This document shows, piece by piece, positions 11,319-17,422 of a stretch of 64,000 nt of DNA; position 1 is the stretch's first letter; each line of letters opens with the position of its first letter. Source of the stretch: Alphaproteobacteria bacterium (GTDB lineage Bacteria; Pseudomonadota; Alphaproteobacteria; GCA-2731375). The translations under genes were made by a program, and so were the position numbers. The DNA is taken from the NCBI GenBank assembly GCA_965225945.1, contig CBDDBZ010000025.1, forward strand, positions 64,001 through 128,000, in the 5' to 3' direction. The notes beneath the pieces are model-generated. The model was given only the letters and a program-made list of their open reading frames with translations, searched no databases and was not told where the DNA came from.

Positions 11319-12704
11319 TTGGCCAAATCGCTCTTCATCCGAACATACGGCTGCCAGATGAACGTCTACGACTCCGCGCGGATGGCGGATGTCCTGGCGC
11401 CGCTGGGCTACGCTCTGGTAGACGCGCCGGACGATGCCGACATGGTCATCGTCAACACCTGCCACATTCGCGAGAAGGCGGCGGAGAAGACCTATTCCGA
11501 ACTCGGCCGCCTGCGCCGCCTGCAGGAGCGCAAGGCGACGGCCGGCGGGCGCATGGTGCTCGCCGTGGCCGGCTGCGTCGCCCAGGCGGAGGGCGAGGAG
11601 ATCCTGCGCCGCGCGCCCAACGTCGACATCGTGCTGGGCCCCCAGACTTATCACCGCCTGCCGGAGATGCTGGCCCGCGCGCGGCGCGCCGCCGACCAAC
11701 GTGATGGCCGGGCGAGGCTCGGCGTGCTCGACACCGAGTTTCCGATCGAGGCGAAATTCGATCATTTGCCGAAATCCGAGAGACCGGCGGCCCCGAGCGC
11801 CTTCCTCACCGTGCAAGAGGGCTGCGACAAGTTCTGCACCTTCTGTGTCGTGCCCTACACCCGGGGAGCCGAATATTCCCGGCCGGTCGCGCGGATCCTG
11901 GCCGAGGCGCGCGATCTGGTGGCCCGGGGCGCGCGGGAGATCACCCTTCTCGGCCAGAACGTCAACGCCTACGCGGGCGAGGCGCCGGCGGGCGATAGCT
12001 GGGATCTCGCCCGGCTCTGCCTGGCGCTGGCCGAGATCGACGATCTCGCGCGCATCCGCTACACCACCTCGCACCCCCGTGACATGAACGAGGCCCTGAT
12101 CGCGGCGCATCACGATTGTCCGAAGCTGATGCCCTATCTGCATTTGCCGATCCAGTCCGGCTCCGACCGCGTCCTCGCGGCGATGAATCGGTCGCATCGG
12201 GTCGAGGATTATTTGGCGACGGTCGCCCGGCTGCGCGCGGCCCGGCCCGATCTGGCGCTCTCGGGCGATTTCATCGTCGGCTTCCCGGGCGAGGGCGAGG
12301 CGGATTTCCGCGCCACTCTCGATCTGGTGGCGGAGGTCGGCTACGCCCAGGCGTTTTCCTTCAAGTACAGCCCCCGGCCCGGCACCCCGGCGGTGGCGAT
12401 GGAGGGACAGGTGCCCGAGGCGGAAAAGGCCGAGCGGCTGGCCCGCCTCCAGGCGCTGCTGGCGCGCCAGCAACGGGACTTCAACCAGGCCATGCTCGGC
12501 CGCGAGCTGGAGCTTCTGCTGGAGCGCCCGGGGCGCCATCCGGACCAGCTCGTCGGCCGCAGTCCTTACCTCCAGGCGGTGCATCTAGACGCCGACGGCG
12601 CCCGGGTCGGCGATCTGGTTCGCGCCCGTATCGTCGAGGCCGGCCAAAACAGTCTCGCCGGCCGACGGCTCGGCGCCGAGGCCTTGGAGGCGCCCCTCCC
12701 GTGA
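11319..12704 (+). CDS. miaB: tRNA-2-methylthio-N6-dimethylallyladenosine synthase
   Basis: [15 protein letters not shown] radical SAM motif, C-terminal TRAM domain. Confidence 0.96.
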
Positions 12705-13693
12705 GTTCGGATTCGCGCCAGCCGCATCTCGTCGTCGAGTTTCAGGACAACCGGCTCCTGCCGGCGCTCTATGGCGAGCACGACCAAAACCTCGCGCGGA
12801 TCGAGCAGAAGCTCGGCGTCCGGGTGGTGCCGCGCGGCAATCGCGTCTCGATCCAGGGGGAGGAGAGCGCGGCGGCCGCCGCCAGCGCGGCATTGAACGA
12901 GCTCTATCGGCGCCTGCAACGCGGTCAGGCGCCGGGCCTGGGCGACGTCGACGGCGCCGTTCGCATGGCGAGCGCGGAGGATACCACGGCCGAGGGCCGA
13001 GGCGCGGGCGAGGACGAGGCGATTCGCACGCAGAAGCGCGTGATCTGGGCCCGTTCGCCGGTCCAAGCCGACTACGTTCGCGCGCTCCGGAGCGATCCCC
13101 TGGTCGTCGCCCTCGGCCCCGCCGGCACCGGCAAGACCTATCTCGCCGTCGCCGTCGCGGTGTCGATGATGCGCGAGGGGCGCGTCGATCGGATGATCCT
13201 CACCCGCCCGGCGGTCGAGGCCGGCGAGCGGCTGGGCTTCCTTCCCGGCACCTTGGAGGAGAAGGTCGACCCCTATATGCGTCCAATGCTCGACGCGCTG
13301 TTCGATATGATGCCGGGCGAAATCGTGGTAAAAAGGCGGGAGGAAGGCGTCATCGAGGTGGCACCGCTCGCTTACATGCGGGGACGCACGCTCGCCAACG
13401 CCTTCATCATTCTAGACGAGGCACAGAACACGACGCCAATTCAGATGAAGATGATTTTGACGCGCATGGGTGAGAACGCCCGCATGGTGGTCACCGGCGA
13501 TCCGAGCCAGGTAGACCTGCCGCTCGGCATCAAGTCGGGTTTGGTCGACGCGATAGAAATTATCGGCGGCATCGAGGATGTGGGCATCATCGAGTTCACC
13601 CACGCCGACGTCGTGCGCCATCCCTTGGTGACGCGGATTGTCAAGGCCTACGACGCCCGCGACTGCGGCCTGTTGGGCGAGGCGGACTCGTGA
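12701..13693 (+). CDS. phoH: PhoH family ATPase
   Basis: [19 protein letters not shown] and DEAQN motifs; GTG start overlaps the miaB stop. Confidence 0.95.
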
Positions 13694-16029
13694 GCGACGC
13701 CAACCTCCAGCCTCGCGACGACCTGCTGCGCGCGCGCGAGGAACTTCGCCAGCGTGCCGAGCGGGCACTCGGGCAGGGCCGCTGGCGGCGGTGGCGGCCG
13801 GCCCTCGATCTCACCTTGCTGGCGGCCTTTGTGGTGCTGTTGACCGCGCTGTTGGCGCCGCCCGTGCCCGGCGTGCTGCCGATACCGGCGCTCGACAGCG
13901 TCGCGCAAACGACGATCCGGGCCGAGCGCGACGTGCTGGTCGAGGATCGCAAGGCCACGGCGCTGCGCCGGCAGGAATCGGCGGCCGGCGTGCTGCCGGT
14001 CCACGACTACGATTCGGAGCTCTACTTCACCCTCGGCGATCGGGTCTCGGCGGCCGTCGGCAAGATGGTGCGTCGCCGCGACCAGTCCGAGGCCACCGAG
14101 GTGGCGCGCCGGACGGCCTTCGAGAGCGACATCGGAGTGCCGATCAAGCCGGGTGTCTTTCCGCTGGTCGAGAAGCTGGAAGACCCGCTCGACATCGCCA
14201 TCGCGGTCAATTTCTTCCTCAATATGGGCCTCGACCGGATGATCATCGCCAACCGCGCGGAGCTGCCGCAGTCGGGCGGCATCGAATCGGTCGATCTCGC
14301 GACCAATCGCTCGATCCGGCTGTTCTATCTGGGCGGCATTCTCGACCTCCGACAGTTTCGCCGCTTGATCCAGGCCCGTTCGGGCGACGCGCCGTACGGC
14401 ACGGCGCGTATCGTCCGCTCCTGGATCTTCGAGACGGCGATGTTGCTGGTCGGGGCGAACCTGCGCGCCAACGAGGCGGCGACCCGCAAGCTGCGCGAGG
14501 ACGCGGCGGCGGAGATCGAGCCCGTCTTCGTGCAAATCAAGGCGGGAGAGGTTCTGGTGCGCCGGGGCGACCGGGTGACGCGATCGGTGCAGGAGCGAAT
14601 GCGCTGGTTGAACGAGAGCGCGGGCGGCCGCCAGCGCTGGGGCGAGACGGCGGCGATGGCGCTGCTGCTGAGCGGCGTCATCCTGCTGGCGGGCATCTTC
14701 TTCCGCCGGGGCCGCGTCGCCCACGATCTCGATCGCAAGCAGATCCTGGTGACGCTCACCATCGTGCTGATCGCGGCGGCCTTCGCGATTGCCATGTACT
14801 ACGCCGGCCGGGGTCTTGCCGAGGGCCTGGCGATTCCGCCGGAGACCGCGACCCTGCTGATACCGCTGGCGCTCGCCACCGTGCTGGTCTCGTTGCTGGT
14901 CGACGCGCGCACCAGCTTGCTGGTCGGGATCGGCATGACGATCCTGGTGGCCTACCGGGTCGACGGCGACATCGGCCTGGTGACCTATTACGTGGTCGGC
15001 GTGCTGGTCGCCGGCATCGCCGCCCGGGGTTGCCGGCGGCGGACCGACCTGTTGCGCGCGGGACTGATGGTGGCTCTGGCGCAGATGGCGGTGCTGCCGC
15101 TCACCACGCTCCTGGCGGGCGAGAGCTTCGGTCCCTCGAAGCTGCCGGAACTCGGTGCCGCCGCCGCCTCCGGCCTGATCGTCGCGGTGTTGGCGCTCGG
15201 CCTGCTGCCGGCCTTGGAGCACCTGTTCGACCAGCCGACGGACATGCGCCTCCTGGAACTCGCCTCGAGCGACCATCCCTTGCTGAAGCGCCTGGCTCTG
15301 GTGGCGCCGGGCAGCTACTACGCCTCGGTGCTGGTCGGCAATCTCTCGGAGGCGGCGGCCGACGCGATCGGCGCCAATGGGCTCCGCGCCCGAGTGATGG
15401 CGCTCTATCACGATATCGGCAAGATCGTGCGTCCGGGCTACTTCGCCGAAAACCAGCGCGATCACAACGAACACGATCGCCTGGCGCCGGAGGTCTCGGC
15501 CCGGATCATCCTCGGTCATGTCCAGGACGGCATCGAAATCGCCCAGCGCGAGCGGCTGGGGCCGGTGGTGCTGGAGGCGATCACCCAGCACCAGGGAACG
15601 ACGCTGTTGAAGTGGTTCTACGCCAAGGCGTTGGAACGGGCGGAGGCGGCGAAGGGCGAGATCGCGGAGGAGGACTTCCGCTATCCGGGGCCCAAACCGC
15701 AGAGCCGCGAGGCCGGCATCCTGCTCTTGGCCGACTCGGTCGAGGCGGCGACCCGCGCGCTCGGCAACCCGGCGCCCGCCGAGGTCCGCGCCCGGGTCTC
15801 GGACGTGATCGCCGAAAAGGTCGCCGACGGGCAGCTCGACGAATGCGAGCTCACCTTCCGCGATTTGACCGTGGTGGAGGAGGCGTTCGCCCGCACGCTC
15901 ACCCTCGGCGTTTACCACAACAGAATTGAATACCCGGCCCTGCCGGCCAGGCCCAAGCAACATGGCGAGAGCGAGAATGAGGATCGAGGTTCGGATCGAG
16001 TGTCCAACCTGGGCGACCGATCGGCCTGA
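13690..16029 (+). CDS. 7TM-HD (PgpH/YqfF-like) membrane protein with a degenerate HD active site
   Basis: N-terminal TM helix, large extracytoplasmic domain (IKAGEVLVRRGD), about 7 TM helices, then YHDIGK, FAENQ, FRYPGPKP and ADSVEAA. Confidence 0.9.
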   Translation: MSDANLQPRDDLLRAREELRQRAERALGQGRWRRWRPALDLTLLAAFVVLLTALLAPPVPGVLPIPALDSVAQTTIRAERDVLVEDRKATALRRQESAAGVLPVHDYDSELYFTLGDRVSAAVGKMVRRRDQSEATEVARRTAFESDIGVPIKPGVFPLVEKLEDPLDIAIAVNFFLNMGLDRMIIANRAELPQSGGIESVDLATNRSIRLFYLGGILDLRQFRRLIQARSGDAPYGTARIVRSWIFETAMLLVGANLRANEAATRKLREDAAAEIEPVFVQIKAGEVLVRRGDRVTRSVQERMRWLNESAGGRQRWGETAAMALLLSGVILLAGIFFRRGRVAHDLDRKQILVTLTIVLIAAAFAIAMYYAGRGLAEGLAIPPETATLLIPLALATVLVSLLVDARTSLLVGIGMTILVAYRVDGDIGLVTYYVVGVLVAGIAARGCRRRTDLLRAGLMVALAQMAVLPLTTLLAGESFGPSKLPELGAAAASGLIVAVLALGLLPALEHLFDQPTDMRLLELASSDHPLLKRLALVAPGSYYASVLVGNLSEAAADAIGANGLRARVMALYHDIGKIVRPGYFAENQRDHNEHDRLAPEVSARIILGHVQDGIEIAQRERLGPVVLEAITQHQGTTLLKWFYAKALERAEAAKGEIAEEDFRYPGPKPQSREAGILLLADSVEAATRALGNPAPAEVRARVSDVIAEKVADGQLDECELTFRDLTVVEEAFARTLTLGVYHNRIEYPALPARPKQHGESENEDRGSDRVSNLGDRSA

Positions 16030-16489
16030 CCCGACGGGCCTGGTCGAGGTCGCGCTCGCCGAAGCCGGCGAGGTGATCGACGACACAGGCCTGCGAGGCC
16101 GCGAGGTCTGCGTGGTGTTGGGCGACGACGCGTTCTCGCGCCGGCTGAACGATACCTGGCGCGGCCGCGACGGTACGACCAACGTGCTGGCCTTTCCGAC
16201 CATGGCCCCCGGGGCTTGGCGGGAAATTCCGGCAGAGGTCGAGGAGAGCCTGGGCGATATCGTGCTGGCGCGCGATGTCGTGGTCGAGGAGGCGCGGGTC
16301 CAGGGCAAGCCGCTGGCCTGGCATTTCACCCATCTCGTACTACATGGATATTTGCATCTTCTGGGCTACGATCACGGCGACGATGGCTCGGCGCGGGAGA
16401 TGGAGGACATGGAGCGTCGGATATTGGCGCGACTTGGAATTCCGGACCCCTATGAGATCGAAGCGGACCGGGCGTCGGCAATCCTATGA
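15977..16489 (+). CDS. ybeY: rRNA maturation endoribonuclease YbeY
   Basis: TNVLAFP, LGDIVL and HGYLHLLGYDH motifs. Confidence 0.93.
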   Translation: MRIEVRIECPTWATDRPDPTGLVEVALAEAGEVIDDTGLRGREVCVVLGDDAFSRRLNDTWRGRDGTTNVLAFPTMAPGAWREIPAEVEESLGDIVLARDVVVEEARVQGKPLAWHFTHLVLHGYLHLLGYDHGDDGSAREMEDMERRILARLGIPDPYEIEADRASAIL

Positions 16490-16498
16490 GCCAAGGTG

Positions 16499-17422
16499 AT
16501 GAACGACGACTCCTCTAAAAGTAGATCGCCCCGGCAACCCGGGGCCAACTCCGACAATTCGACGACGTCACTGGGCGAGATACTGAAATCCTGGCTCCGC
16601 GGCATATTTGGCGGCGGCGAGGGCGATCTCCGGGAGAGCCTCGAGGACGTGATCGAGGAGCACGGCGAGAACGGCGGCTTGCTCGATCCCGAGCAGCGGA
16701 CCATGCTCTCGAACATCCTGGGCTTCGGCGAACTGCAGGCCGACGACATCATGGTGCCGAGGGCCGACATTGTCGCGATCGACGTCGCCAATGGCCTCGC
16801 GGAGGTGATGGGGACCTTCCGCGAGGGGCGCCATTCGCGCCTGCCGGTCTATGGCGAGAACCTGGACCAGGTGATCGGCTTCATCCACATCAAAGACATC
16901 CTCGACTTCTGGAGCGACGGCGAGGGGTTCTCGGTCGCCAAGATCGTCCGCGAGCCGTTGGTGGTGCCGCCTTCGATGCCGGCGCTCGACCTCTTGGAAC
17001 GGATGCGGGCGACCCGGATCCACATGGCGTTGGTGGTCGACGAGTACGGCGGCGTGGACGGCCTGATCACCATCGAGGACGTTGTCGAGGAGATCGTCGG
17101 CGAGATCGAGGACGAGCACGACGAGGAGAGCGACAACGTCATCACCGCGCTCTCGGAGGATTGCTTCGAGGCCGACGCGCGGGTCGAGATCGAGGTCTTC
17201 GAGAGCCGCTTCGGCGTCGATCTTCTGCCCGACGAGCACGACGAGGACATCGAGACCCTGGGCGGCGCCGTCGTCGCTCTGCTGGGCCGCTTGCCGCGCA
17301 CCGGCGAGCGGGTCCGCCATACCGCCGGCTTCGAGTTCGAGGTCGTGGATGCCGATCCGCGCCGCATAAAGAAACTCCGCATTCACCGCGCCGCCGAGGC
17401 GCGCGCCGCCTCGGCCGACTAG
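16499..17422 (+). CDS. corC: HlyC/CorC family CBS-domain protein
   Basis: MVPRADI, HSRLPV and VVDEYGG motifs; CorC_HlyC C-terminus. Confidence 0.9.
   Translation: MNDDSSKSRSPRQPGANSDNSTTSLGEILKSWLRGIFGGGEGDLRESLEDVIEEHGENGGLLDPEQRTMLSNILGFGELQADDIMVPRADIVAIDVANGLAEVMGTFREGRHSRLPVYGENLDQVIGFIHIKDILDFWSDGEGFSVAKIVREPLVVPPSMPALDLLERMRATRIHMALVVDEYGGVDGLITIEDVVEEIVGEIEDEHDEESDNVITALSEDCFEADARVEIEVFESRFGVDLLPDEHDEDIETLGGAVVALLGRLPRTGERVRHTAGFEFEVVDADPRRIKKLRIHRAAEARAASAD

Follow-up and report, generated by a model that had tools for sequence, protein, structure and literature searches.

Two replaced metal ligands in a PgpH-type 7TM-HD protein encoded between phoH and ybeY of an alphaproteobacterium

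The literature regards PgpH as a phosphodiesterase of cyclic di-AMP (c-di-AMP), and databases pass this label on to its relatives. What, then, is the role of a PgpH-type protein in which two of the metal-binding residues are replaced? This question is raised by a gene for a seven-transmembrane (7TM) HD protein, here called the 7TM-HD gene, in a stretch of 64,000 nt from an alphaproteobacterial genome (assembly GCA_965225945.1, contig CBDDBZ010000025.1, positions 64,001 to 128,000 of the forward strand; hereafter the window). A preliminary description of the window had proposed that the HD domain lost two ligands in a targeted manner and now serves as a non-catalytic transmembrane sensor or scaffold that perhaps binds (p)ppGpp or a cyclic dinucleotide and acts with PhoH and YbeY. 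We arrive at a reading to which we give an even chance, namely that the metal/nucleotide site has been remodelled, would still be functional, and may act on or sense a ligand other than c-di-AMP.

Two metal ligands are replaced in an otherwise conserved HD domain

The 7TM-HD gene starts with a GTG codon and its frame (13690-16029, plus strand) contains no internal stop. Matches to three Pfam models exceed the curated cut-offs and follow the order expected for the PgpH/YqfF 7TM-HD family (Table 1), the NCBIfam HDIG domain TIGR00277 matches as well (E 1.6e-15), and the Pfam HD match begins at profile position 5, right behind the first His. By sequence, the sole solved relative is the HD domain of Listeria PgpH (Lmo1466, 4S1B/4S1C; phmmer E 4.6e-61), with 46% identity across 224 amino acids (aa). 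An AlphaFold2 model of aa 520-779, built from a 68-row alignment, reaches a mean predicted local distance difference test (pLDDT) value of 91.7 for the HD domain. The top four Foldseek matches of this model are 4S1C/4S1B, with target-normalised template modelling (TM) scores of 0.92-0.95; for PgpH, TM scores of 0.93-0.95 go with root-mean-square deviations (rmsd) of 1.5-2.2 A (0.95 and 1.5 A on 4S1C), and the next folds, HD-GYP and dNTPase HD domains, follow at E 0.02 or worse. The HD domain is cytoplasmic according to the family topology given in a review (PMC10117814).

Seven metal ligands are listed for PgpH in a second review (PMC8177086): H514, H543, D544, H580, H604, H605 and D648. We anchored the ligand numbering on the sole HD dyad of the window protein, so that PgpH H543/D544 correspond to H574/D575. 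Five of the seven ligands are present; Ala (A545) stands at the position of H514 and Gln (Q635) at that of H605, the seventh ligand. The phmmer alignment to 4S1B/4S1C accordingly sets apgsyyas opposite apgtyhhs and qhqgt opposite qhhgt, and S542, adjoining A545, stands in place of Thr. The core of the HD superfamily, H...HD...D, is likewise incomplete, since A545 takes the place of its first His, with H574-D575 and D682 present. These results bear out the preliminary description, which had reported APGSYYAS and QHQGT exactly where they lie, an intact frame, the retention of YHDIGK (aa 573), ILGHV (aa 607) and ADSVEAA (aa 681), and altered residues at the metal-ligand histidines of PgpH.

The departures are confined to the ligands. 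Among 284 aligned HD domains, 43 HD columns are at least 93% conserved in the 142 canonical members, which carry His at both positions (H/H). The window protein is off consensus at 2 of these 43 columns, and both are among the seven ligand columns, which by chance would happen with a probability of (7/43)x(6/42) = 0.023. Pairwise comparison of the three genus genomes after Nei-Gojobori gives ratios of nonsynonymous to synonymous substitution rates (dN/dS) of 0.11-0.16 over the entire gene; of the three regions measured, the HD domain has the lowest values (0.076-0.103). Thus, selection on the domain is not relaxed, and the earlier claim of targeted ligand loss without general decay holds. At the codon level, the H514 position required two base changes (CAC to GCC) and an H/Q exchange requires one. 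Sequencing error can be excluded, because A545 and Q635 recur in two other genomes of the genus.

The substitutions are old and mark clades

Orthologues are present in 23 of the 24 other genomes of the same taxonomic family and in few other alphaproteobacterial families; class-wide, PF07698 scores above its cut-off in 15 of 401 genomes. Written as the residues at PgpH positions 514/605, the state A/Q is found in 3 of 25 sequences of the taxonomic family (the window's genus g1, all three genomes of which carry A545 and Q635 together), A/H in 4 (genera g8 and g7), H/Q in 16 (several genera) and H/H in 2 (genus g3). Among the closest clusters at 90% identity (129 rows), 20 have Ala at 545 and about 116 have Gln at 635. 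Across the whole protein family the changes are rarer: in 150 representatives plus the query, His 514 is replaced in 4 (three Ser and the query) and His 605 in 10.

In our trees, all alphaproteobacterial sequences form one clade (support 100), and the inferred ancestral state at 635 is Gln. The sister of this clade is protein P0004, labelled Magnetococcus massalia by a source, and in the 30 loci examined from this sister class of the same phylum (L121-L150) His 514 is always kept, with position 635 being His in 17 and Gln in 13. The Ala-545 sequences form a single clade with support 91 in a tree of 123 rows (19 of 117 rows; 1 change), a 42-row genome tree needs 2 changes, and the approximately unbiased (AU) test does not reject a single A545 clade (p 0.51). 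We take A545 to have arisen once, or at most twice. A545 is the mark of one deep subclade, with about 5.2 substitutions per site of tree length, and is later than the ancestral Q635. The two substitutions are thus clade-level rather than strain-specific, as the genus genomes, the 20 of 129 close clusters and the trees agree. They are not a single event: Q635 goes back to the origin of the alphaproteobacterial clade and toggles with His, and A545 was added later in one subclade.

As the changes are targeted, old and maintained, relaxed selection and a strain-specific accident can be excluded. A decaying gene with substitutions peculiar to the strain is thus scarcely credible, given the intact frame, the dN/dS values of 0.11-0.16 and 0.08-0.10, and the spread of Ala 545 over genus and clusters; speaking for decay are the dispensability of the gene in some relatives, including one genus of the taxonomic family in which phoH and ybeY are adjacent without it, and a copy in genome G010 that is broken into four pieces in different frames.

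Conservation of the remaining site is nearly complete. The five other ligands are unchanged in 23 of 23 sequences of the A545 clade and in 114 of 114 alphaproteobacterial H/Q sequences. In the Ala clade (n=23) the remaining conserved columns are also kept, including K578, E587/N588, H595, S603, R664/Y665, E685 and H743/R745/Y748, the sole exception being F643I in 5 of the 23. Systematic differences of the A545 clade are limited to T542S, R534, A567, V611 and V729, and T542S switches together with A545 (23/23 in the A clade versus 0/114). Since five ligands and the conserved pocket are invariant in a deep clade, the metal site is still under selection. Moreover, the Ala clade accounts for 18% of the tree length but for three of the four Gln-to-His reversions at position 635 (P = 0.021), and this hints at selection keeping metal affinity after the loss of H514.

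Replacement of the same ligands is also seen elsewhere in the protein family. Gln at the H605 position (HQGT/HQGK) also occurs in P0088, P0108, P0112, P0117 and P0130, whose lower identity to the query (32-39%) places them outside the alphaproteobacterial clade, so that H-to-Q at 605 is recurrent in the family. A separate lineage (P0059, P0118, P0135), whose relatives are labelled as metagenome-assembled genomes (MAGs) of Omnitrophota/Planctomycetia, has Ser in place of H514 (YQSS) and keeps the other six ligands. This lineage is represented by 1 genome among the 73 loci (L065, a 1.3-Mb MAG of unknown completeness), which has no match to the diadenylate cyclase (DAC) domain; such a match is present in 3 of 4 canonical neighbours, a sample too small to build on.

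Degenerate, missing and split orthologues

A much more altered orthologue provides a contrast. L037 (G054:C2:359847-363437; cluster P0003), from a 98%-complete genome, encodes a full-length protein of 792 aa (42% identity). Here 13 of the 43 conserved columns are changed, including the dyad (HD to HR, D575R), H610P, H634Q and D682S/G, together with H635Q/R, K578E, Y584A and H595L. The branch is long (1.09 versus a median of 0.14), and that of the window protein is ordinary. L037/P0003 is thus a clear candidate for a pseudo-enzyme within the same clade, and its gene has kept its place between phoH and ybeY. The marks of degenerate, non-catalytic HD domains such as HnoD, ECA3548 and Bd1817, namely a missing dyad, a missing terminal Asp or the lack of most ligands, are seen in this orthologue and not in the window protein.

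One genus of the taxonomic family does without the 7TM-HD gene altogether (L120, G007:C120:2322-6251; genome 100% complete), and here miaB, phoH, ybeY and corC are contiguous, with a phoH-ybeY gap of about 40 nt.

The split orthologue at G010:C28:58809-61106 (L026, L030 and L031; genus g3, 87% complete) lacks the YHDIGK stretch in its longest frame and represents either a frameshifted pseudogene or an assembly error.

Absence of c-di-AMP synthesis genes

Searches for a DAC domain (PF02457) were negative for the window's genome, which is 96.55% complete, for all 33 genomes of the taxonomic family and for all 11 other alphaproteobacterial carriers (0/44 together); the control search was positive in 11 of 14 reference genomes. 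Nor did the window's genome give a match to the c-di-AMP riboswitch RF00379. In the sister class, DAC matches exceed the cut-off in 3 of 30 genomes and are borderline (at most 28.7 bits), compared with 138 bits for clear DAC genes in unrelated MAGs. Because no DAC was detected in its own genome or in the alphaproteobacterial relatives searched, c-di-AMP can be ruled out as the physiological ligand or substrate of the window protein, and the substrate must differ from that of PgpH.

The preliminary description had suggested that the YA/HQ variant might define a clade lacking DAC genes. This was not supported in that form, as orthologues with all seven ligands occur in alphaproteobacterial genomes without DAC (genus g3) and at 17 of the 30 sister-class loci, where DAC is at most borderline. 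The absence of DAC therefore spans seven-ligand members and is no mark of the variant. The persistence of complete sites in DAC-less genomes indicates that the site serves another substrate. This proteobacterial clade keeps the protein under strong selection without DAC, and many of its members have all seven ligands in place; the family must therefore possess an as yet undescribed second substrate or role. One candidate nucleotide is at hand: the window's genome contains one RelA/SpoT gene, so that (p)ppGpp is available, and (p)ppGpp is reported to inhibit PgpH in a review (PMC10117814).

That the protein is an ordinary c-di-AMP phosphodiesterase which tolerates both substitutions, supplied with substrate by an unrecognised cyclase or from outside the cell, is very improbable. 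The 46% identity to PgpH, the shared fold and the label 'cyclic-di-AMP phosphodiesterase PgpH' given to relatives by some sources would fit this explanation. Against it stand the lack of DAC in its own, the family and the other carrier genomes in the face of a positive control, the lack of a riboswitch match in its own genome, and the cytoplasmic location that the family topology assigns to the HD domain (PMC10117814).

Source labels of close relatives are inconsistent, ranging from 'Ribonuclease Y' and 'cyclic-di-AMP phosphodiesterase PgpH' to 'putative nucleotidyltransferase with HDIG domain' and 'HD family phosphohydrolase'. For relatives in DAC-less hosts the PgpH label is unlikely to be right, and genes of this clade are better not named c-di-AMP phosphodiesterases.

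A proposed remodelled metal site and a possible pseudo-enzyme

We favour a metal site that is remodelled and still in use, because five ligands and the pocket are retained over a deep clade, Gln-to-His reversions are enriched, and the degenerate lineage provides a contrast. The protein would be a membrane receptor of the PgpH/YqfF family whose gene shares a single operon with phoH and ybeY. In its HD domain the metal centre would have been remodelled rather than abandoned, as the HD dyad, the terminal Asp and two more His are kept. With the first His of H..HD..D changed to Ala and the 'seventh' His to Gln, about three protein ligands per metal would be left and more coordination positions would be open. 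The HD domain would presumably still bind metal and a phosphate-bearing ligand, which may be another nucleotide or an RNA-derived phosphodiester. The protein could then act as a signal-controlled hydrolase or as a sensor, its turnover probably slowed or its metal requirement altered, and its function may be linked to the PhoH-YbeY module of RNA and ribosome maturation.

Published HD sites lend themselves to this interpretation. According to a review (PMC8177086), six ligands of the type H..HD..H..H..D, as in YqeK, suffice for a dinuclear site and are diagnostic of it, PgpH and HD-GYP proteins add a seventh ligand in the His beside the last one, the second metal of Class I phosphodiesterases is bound by a single Asp together with waters, and the HD motif tolerates non-canonical residues. 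As six-ligand sites are dinuclear, Q635 alone is unlikely to disable the site, and its long persistence with all else invariant agrees with a site that is not disabled. A545, which takes away the canonical first His, is the stronger change. In RpfG a key His is missing, but one of its close relatives shows robust hydrolysis of c-di-GMP (preprint 10.1101/2021.11.05.467447). The variant HD-GYP proteins point both ways and do not decide the present case.

Several observations weigh against a site that is still in use. The first His is the hallmark ligand of the metal M1 and is invariably His in the 142 canonical members and in the 114 H/Q relatives. Mutants of HD enzymes that lack it are mostly badly impaired. 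No new Asp, Glu or His that could serve as a replacement ligand was found in the A545 clade (23 versus 114 sequences), and a change from His to Ala by two bases without such a replacement looks like deliberate removal of a ligand. The reversion statistic comprises four events only, and no group other than the window's genus lacks both His in the genomes searched. The retention of the degenerate L037/P0003 at its operon position further implies that a role independent of catalysis exists in the clade. Finally, the PgpH homologue PDEPg of P. gingivalis is described as a regulatory pseudo-phosphodiesterase despite its kept ligands (PMC13700151).

The alternative of a true pseudo-enzyme is therefore plausible, and we regard it as possible rather than probable. 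The protein would be a non-hydrolysing nucleotide receptor, possibly metal-assisted, or a membrane scaffold that relays a signal sensed by the 7TM module to PhoH/YbeY. Besides the loss of two of seven ligands, among them the canonical first His, which two base changes removed without a substitute, this alternative is supported by the absence of c-di-AMP in the DAC and riboswitch searches, the invariant operon coupling to phoH and ybeY, and the almost ligand-free L037 orthologue still kept between these genes. Inhibition of PgpH by (p)ppGpp (PMC10117814), together with the single RelA/SpoT gene, would suit a receptor, and PDEPg, HnoD and ECA3548 are non-catalytic precedents that act through binding or protein contacts. 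Against it, the five ligands and the other conserved pocket residues are invariant, whereas a pure scaffold would drift like L037/P0003; the degenerate lineage sits on a long branch and the window protein on an ordinary one; and the loss of one His is by itself no predictor of inactivity.

A wider and rather doubtful scheme can also be drawn. An old proteobacterial 7TM-HD branch, consisting of the alphaproteobacterial clade and the Magnetococcus-containing sister class, may have been free of c-di-AMP throughout and tied to the PhoH-YbeY operon. Its extant stages with seven, six (Q605), five (plus A514, as in the window's genus) and almost no ligands (L037/P0003) might then document the passage from an enzyme to a signalling pseudo-enzyme. 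The window protein would be a receptor that binds a nucleotide, such as (p)ppGpp or an RNA-decay product, with the aid of metal but without hydrolysis, and that couples an envelope signal to YbeY/PhoH.

Whichever explanation applies, the wider point is a proteobacterial PgpH clade that lives without c-di-AMP beside phoH/ybeY and shows graded ligand loss. This natural series of seven, six, five and about zero ligands at a fixed phoH-ybeY position offers ready allelic variants for probing the role of the HD site and the need for catalysis, and could illuminate the poorly understood PhoH(YbeZ)-YbeY module.

Comparison with known systems

PgpH of Listeria monocytogenes (Lmo1466) is the closest characterised relative. 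It shares the architecture of a 7TMR-HDED domain, a 7TM module and an HD domain that is 45-46% identical, and the window protein keeps five of its seven ligands as well as its HDIGK, ENQ, RYxGPxP and DxxEA motifs. Unlike PgpH, the window protein has Ala at H514 and Gln at H605, its host lacks a diadenylate cyclase, and its gene is joined by overlapping codons into a miaB-phoH-X-ybeY-corC block.

A second relative, the 7TM-HD protein PDEPg of P. gingivalis (PGN_0521), has a PgpH-like HD domain and is reported in two sources to be a regulator without measurable c-di-AMP hydrolysis (PMC13700151, PMC9259658). As described there, PDEPg keeps the catalytic residues of its HD domain, its host makes c-di-AMP, and a DAC gene lies nearby, in contrast to the replaced ligands and missing DAC of the window protein.

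The HD-GYP proteins (Xanthomonas/Lysobacter RpfG, HnoD, ECA3548, Bd1817) form a sister branch with a seven-ligand H..HD..H..HH..D motif and natural variants that lack one His or many ligands; they are a separate family, marked by a GYP motif, whose substrate is c-di-GMP. Among these variants, proteins of the RpfG type without one His can be active, and HnoD, ECA3548 and Bd1817 are inactive; the degenerate HnoD and ECA3548 work through protein contacts (preprint 10.1101/2021.11.05.467447). The YqeK-type site is the nearest match to the effect of Q635, which leaves at most the six-ligand pattern H..HD..H..H..D, described as sufficient for a dinuclear site (PMC8177086). Unlike YqeK, the window protein is also without the first His and hence has five ligands, and the fold match is weak (Foldseek E 0.08).

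We found no literature linking PgpH with YbeY, and publications retrieved for 7TMR-HD, YqfF and COG1480 held nothing on the question of ligand variants. A search of titles and abstracts found no relevant report on PgpH in Alphaproteobacteria, with the primary PgpH paper, which possibly covers the distribution of homologues, outside this search. No study of PgpH ligand mutants (H514A, H543A, D544A) was found in a literature set that did not include the primary PgpH structure paper.

Operon context

The 7TM-HD gene is flanked by phoH and ybeY, all on the same strand, within a tightly packed block (Table 1). The miaB stop overlaps the phoH GTG in the sequence GTGA (12701-12704), and a second GTGA (13690-13693) combines the stop of phoH with the GTG that starts the 7TM-HD gene. 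The ybeY start (ATG at 15962 or 15977) lies inside the 7TM-HD gene, whose stop codon is at 16027-16029, giving an overlap of 53-68 nt; alignments of YbeY homologues begin at residues 2-8. Both the GTGA overlaps and the ybeY overlap suggest translational coupling along the block.

The order miaB - phoH - 7TM-HD - ybeY - corC was found in 38 of 38 loci from 34 alphaproteobacterial genomes, with PhoH visible in 36 of them and the two others ending at contig edges. The order phoH - 7TM-HD - ybeY also extends to the 30 sister-class loci, with a YbeY match in 28. We take the Bacillus gene order to be phoH-yqfF-ybeY. Conserved synteny and overlapping codons thus show a tight linkage to phoH and ybeY, from which we infer a putative functional tie of the 7TM-HD protein to PhoH/YbeY.

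Table 1. Features of the 7TM-HD locus in the window. Residue numbers refer to the window protein, with PgpH equivalents in parentheses.
Feature	Position	Strand	Basis or remark
miaB, first gene of the conserved block	11319..12704	+	Pfam UPF0004 + Radical_SAM + TRAM
phoH (PhoH/YbeZ-type ATPase), likely GTG start	12701..13693	+	Pfam PhoH, E 1.2e-88
7TM-HD (PgpH/YqfF-type) gene, 779 aa	13690..16029	+	Open reading frame list and translation; Pfam PF07697 + PF07698 + PF01966
Extracytoplasmic 7TMR-HDED domain, aa 69-302	13894..14595	+	Pfam PF07697, E 3.1e-24
Seven-transmembrane module 7TM-7TMR_HD, aa 322-517	14653..15240	+	Pfam PF07698, E 3.4e-30
Cytoplasmic HD domain, aa 526-749	15265..15936	+	Alignment to PgpH 4S1B (E 4.6e-61); AlphaFold2 model
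APGSYYAS, aa 539-546	15304..15327	+	
A545, codon GCC (H514)	15322..15324	+	Alignment to PgpH; ligand replaced
HD dyad H574-D575 (H543, D544)	15409..15414	+	Alignment; ligands kept
H610 (H580)	15517..15519	+	Alignment; ligand kept
QHQGT, aa 633-637	15586..15600	+	
H634 (H604)	15589..15591	+	Alignment; ligand kept
Q635, codon CAG (H605, 'seventh ligand')	15592..15594	+	Alignment to PgpH; ligand replaced
D682 (D648)	15733..15735	+	Alignment; ligand kept
ybeY endoribonuclease gene	15962..16489	+	Pfam YbeY, E 1.6e-25
corC/tlyC-type CBS + CorC_HlyC gene, 3' part of the conserved block	16496..17422	+	Pfam, synteny

An antisense open reading frame of 893 aa spans the same region (13648-16329, minus strand) and was rejected as an artefact of high G/C content, as all Pfam and PDB matches fall in the plus-strand frame. 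Several further long overlapping open reading frames occur besides it, as is typical for high-G/C DNA.

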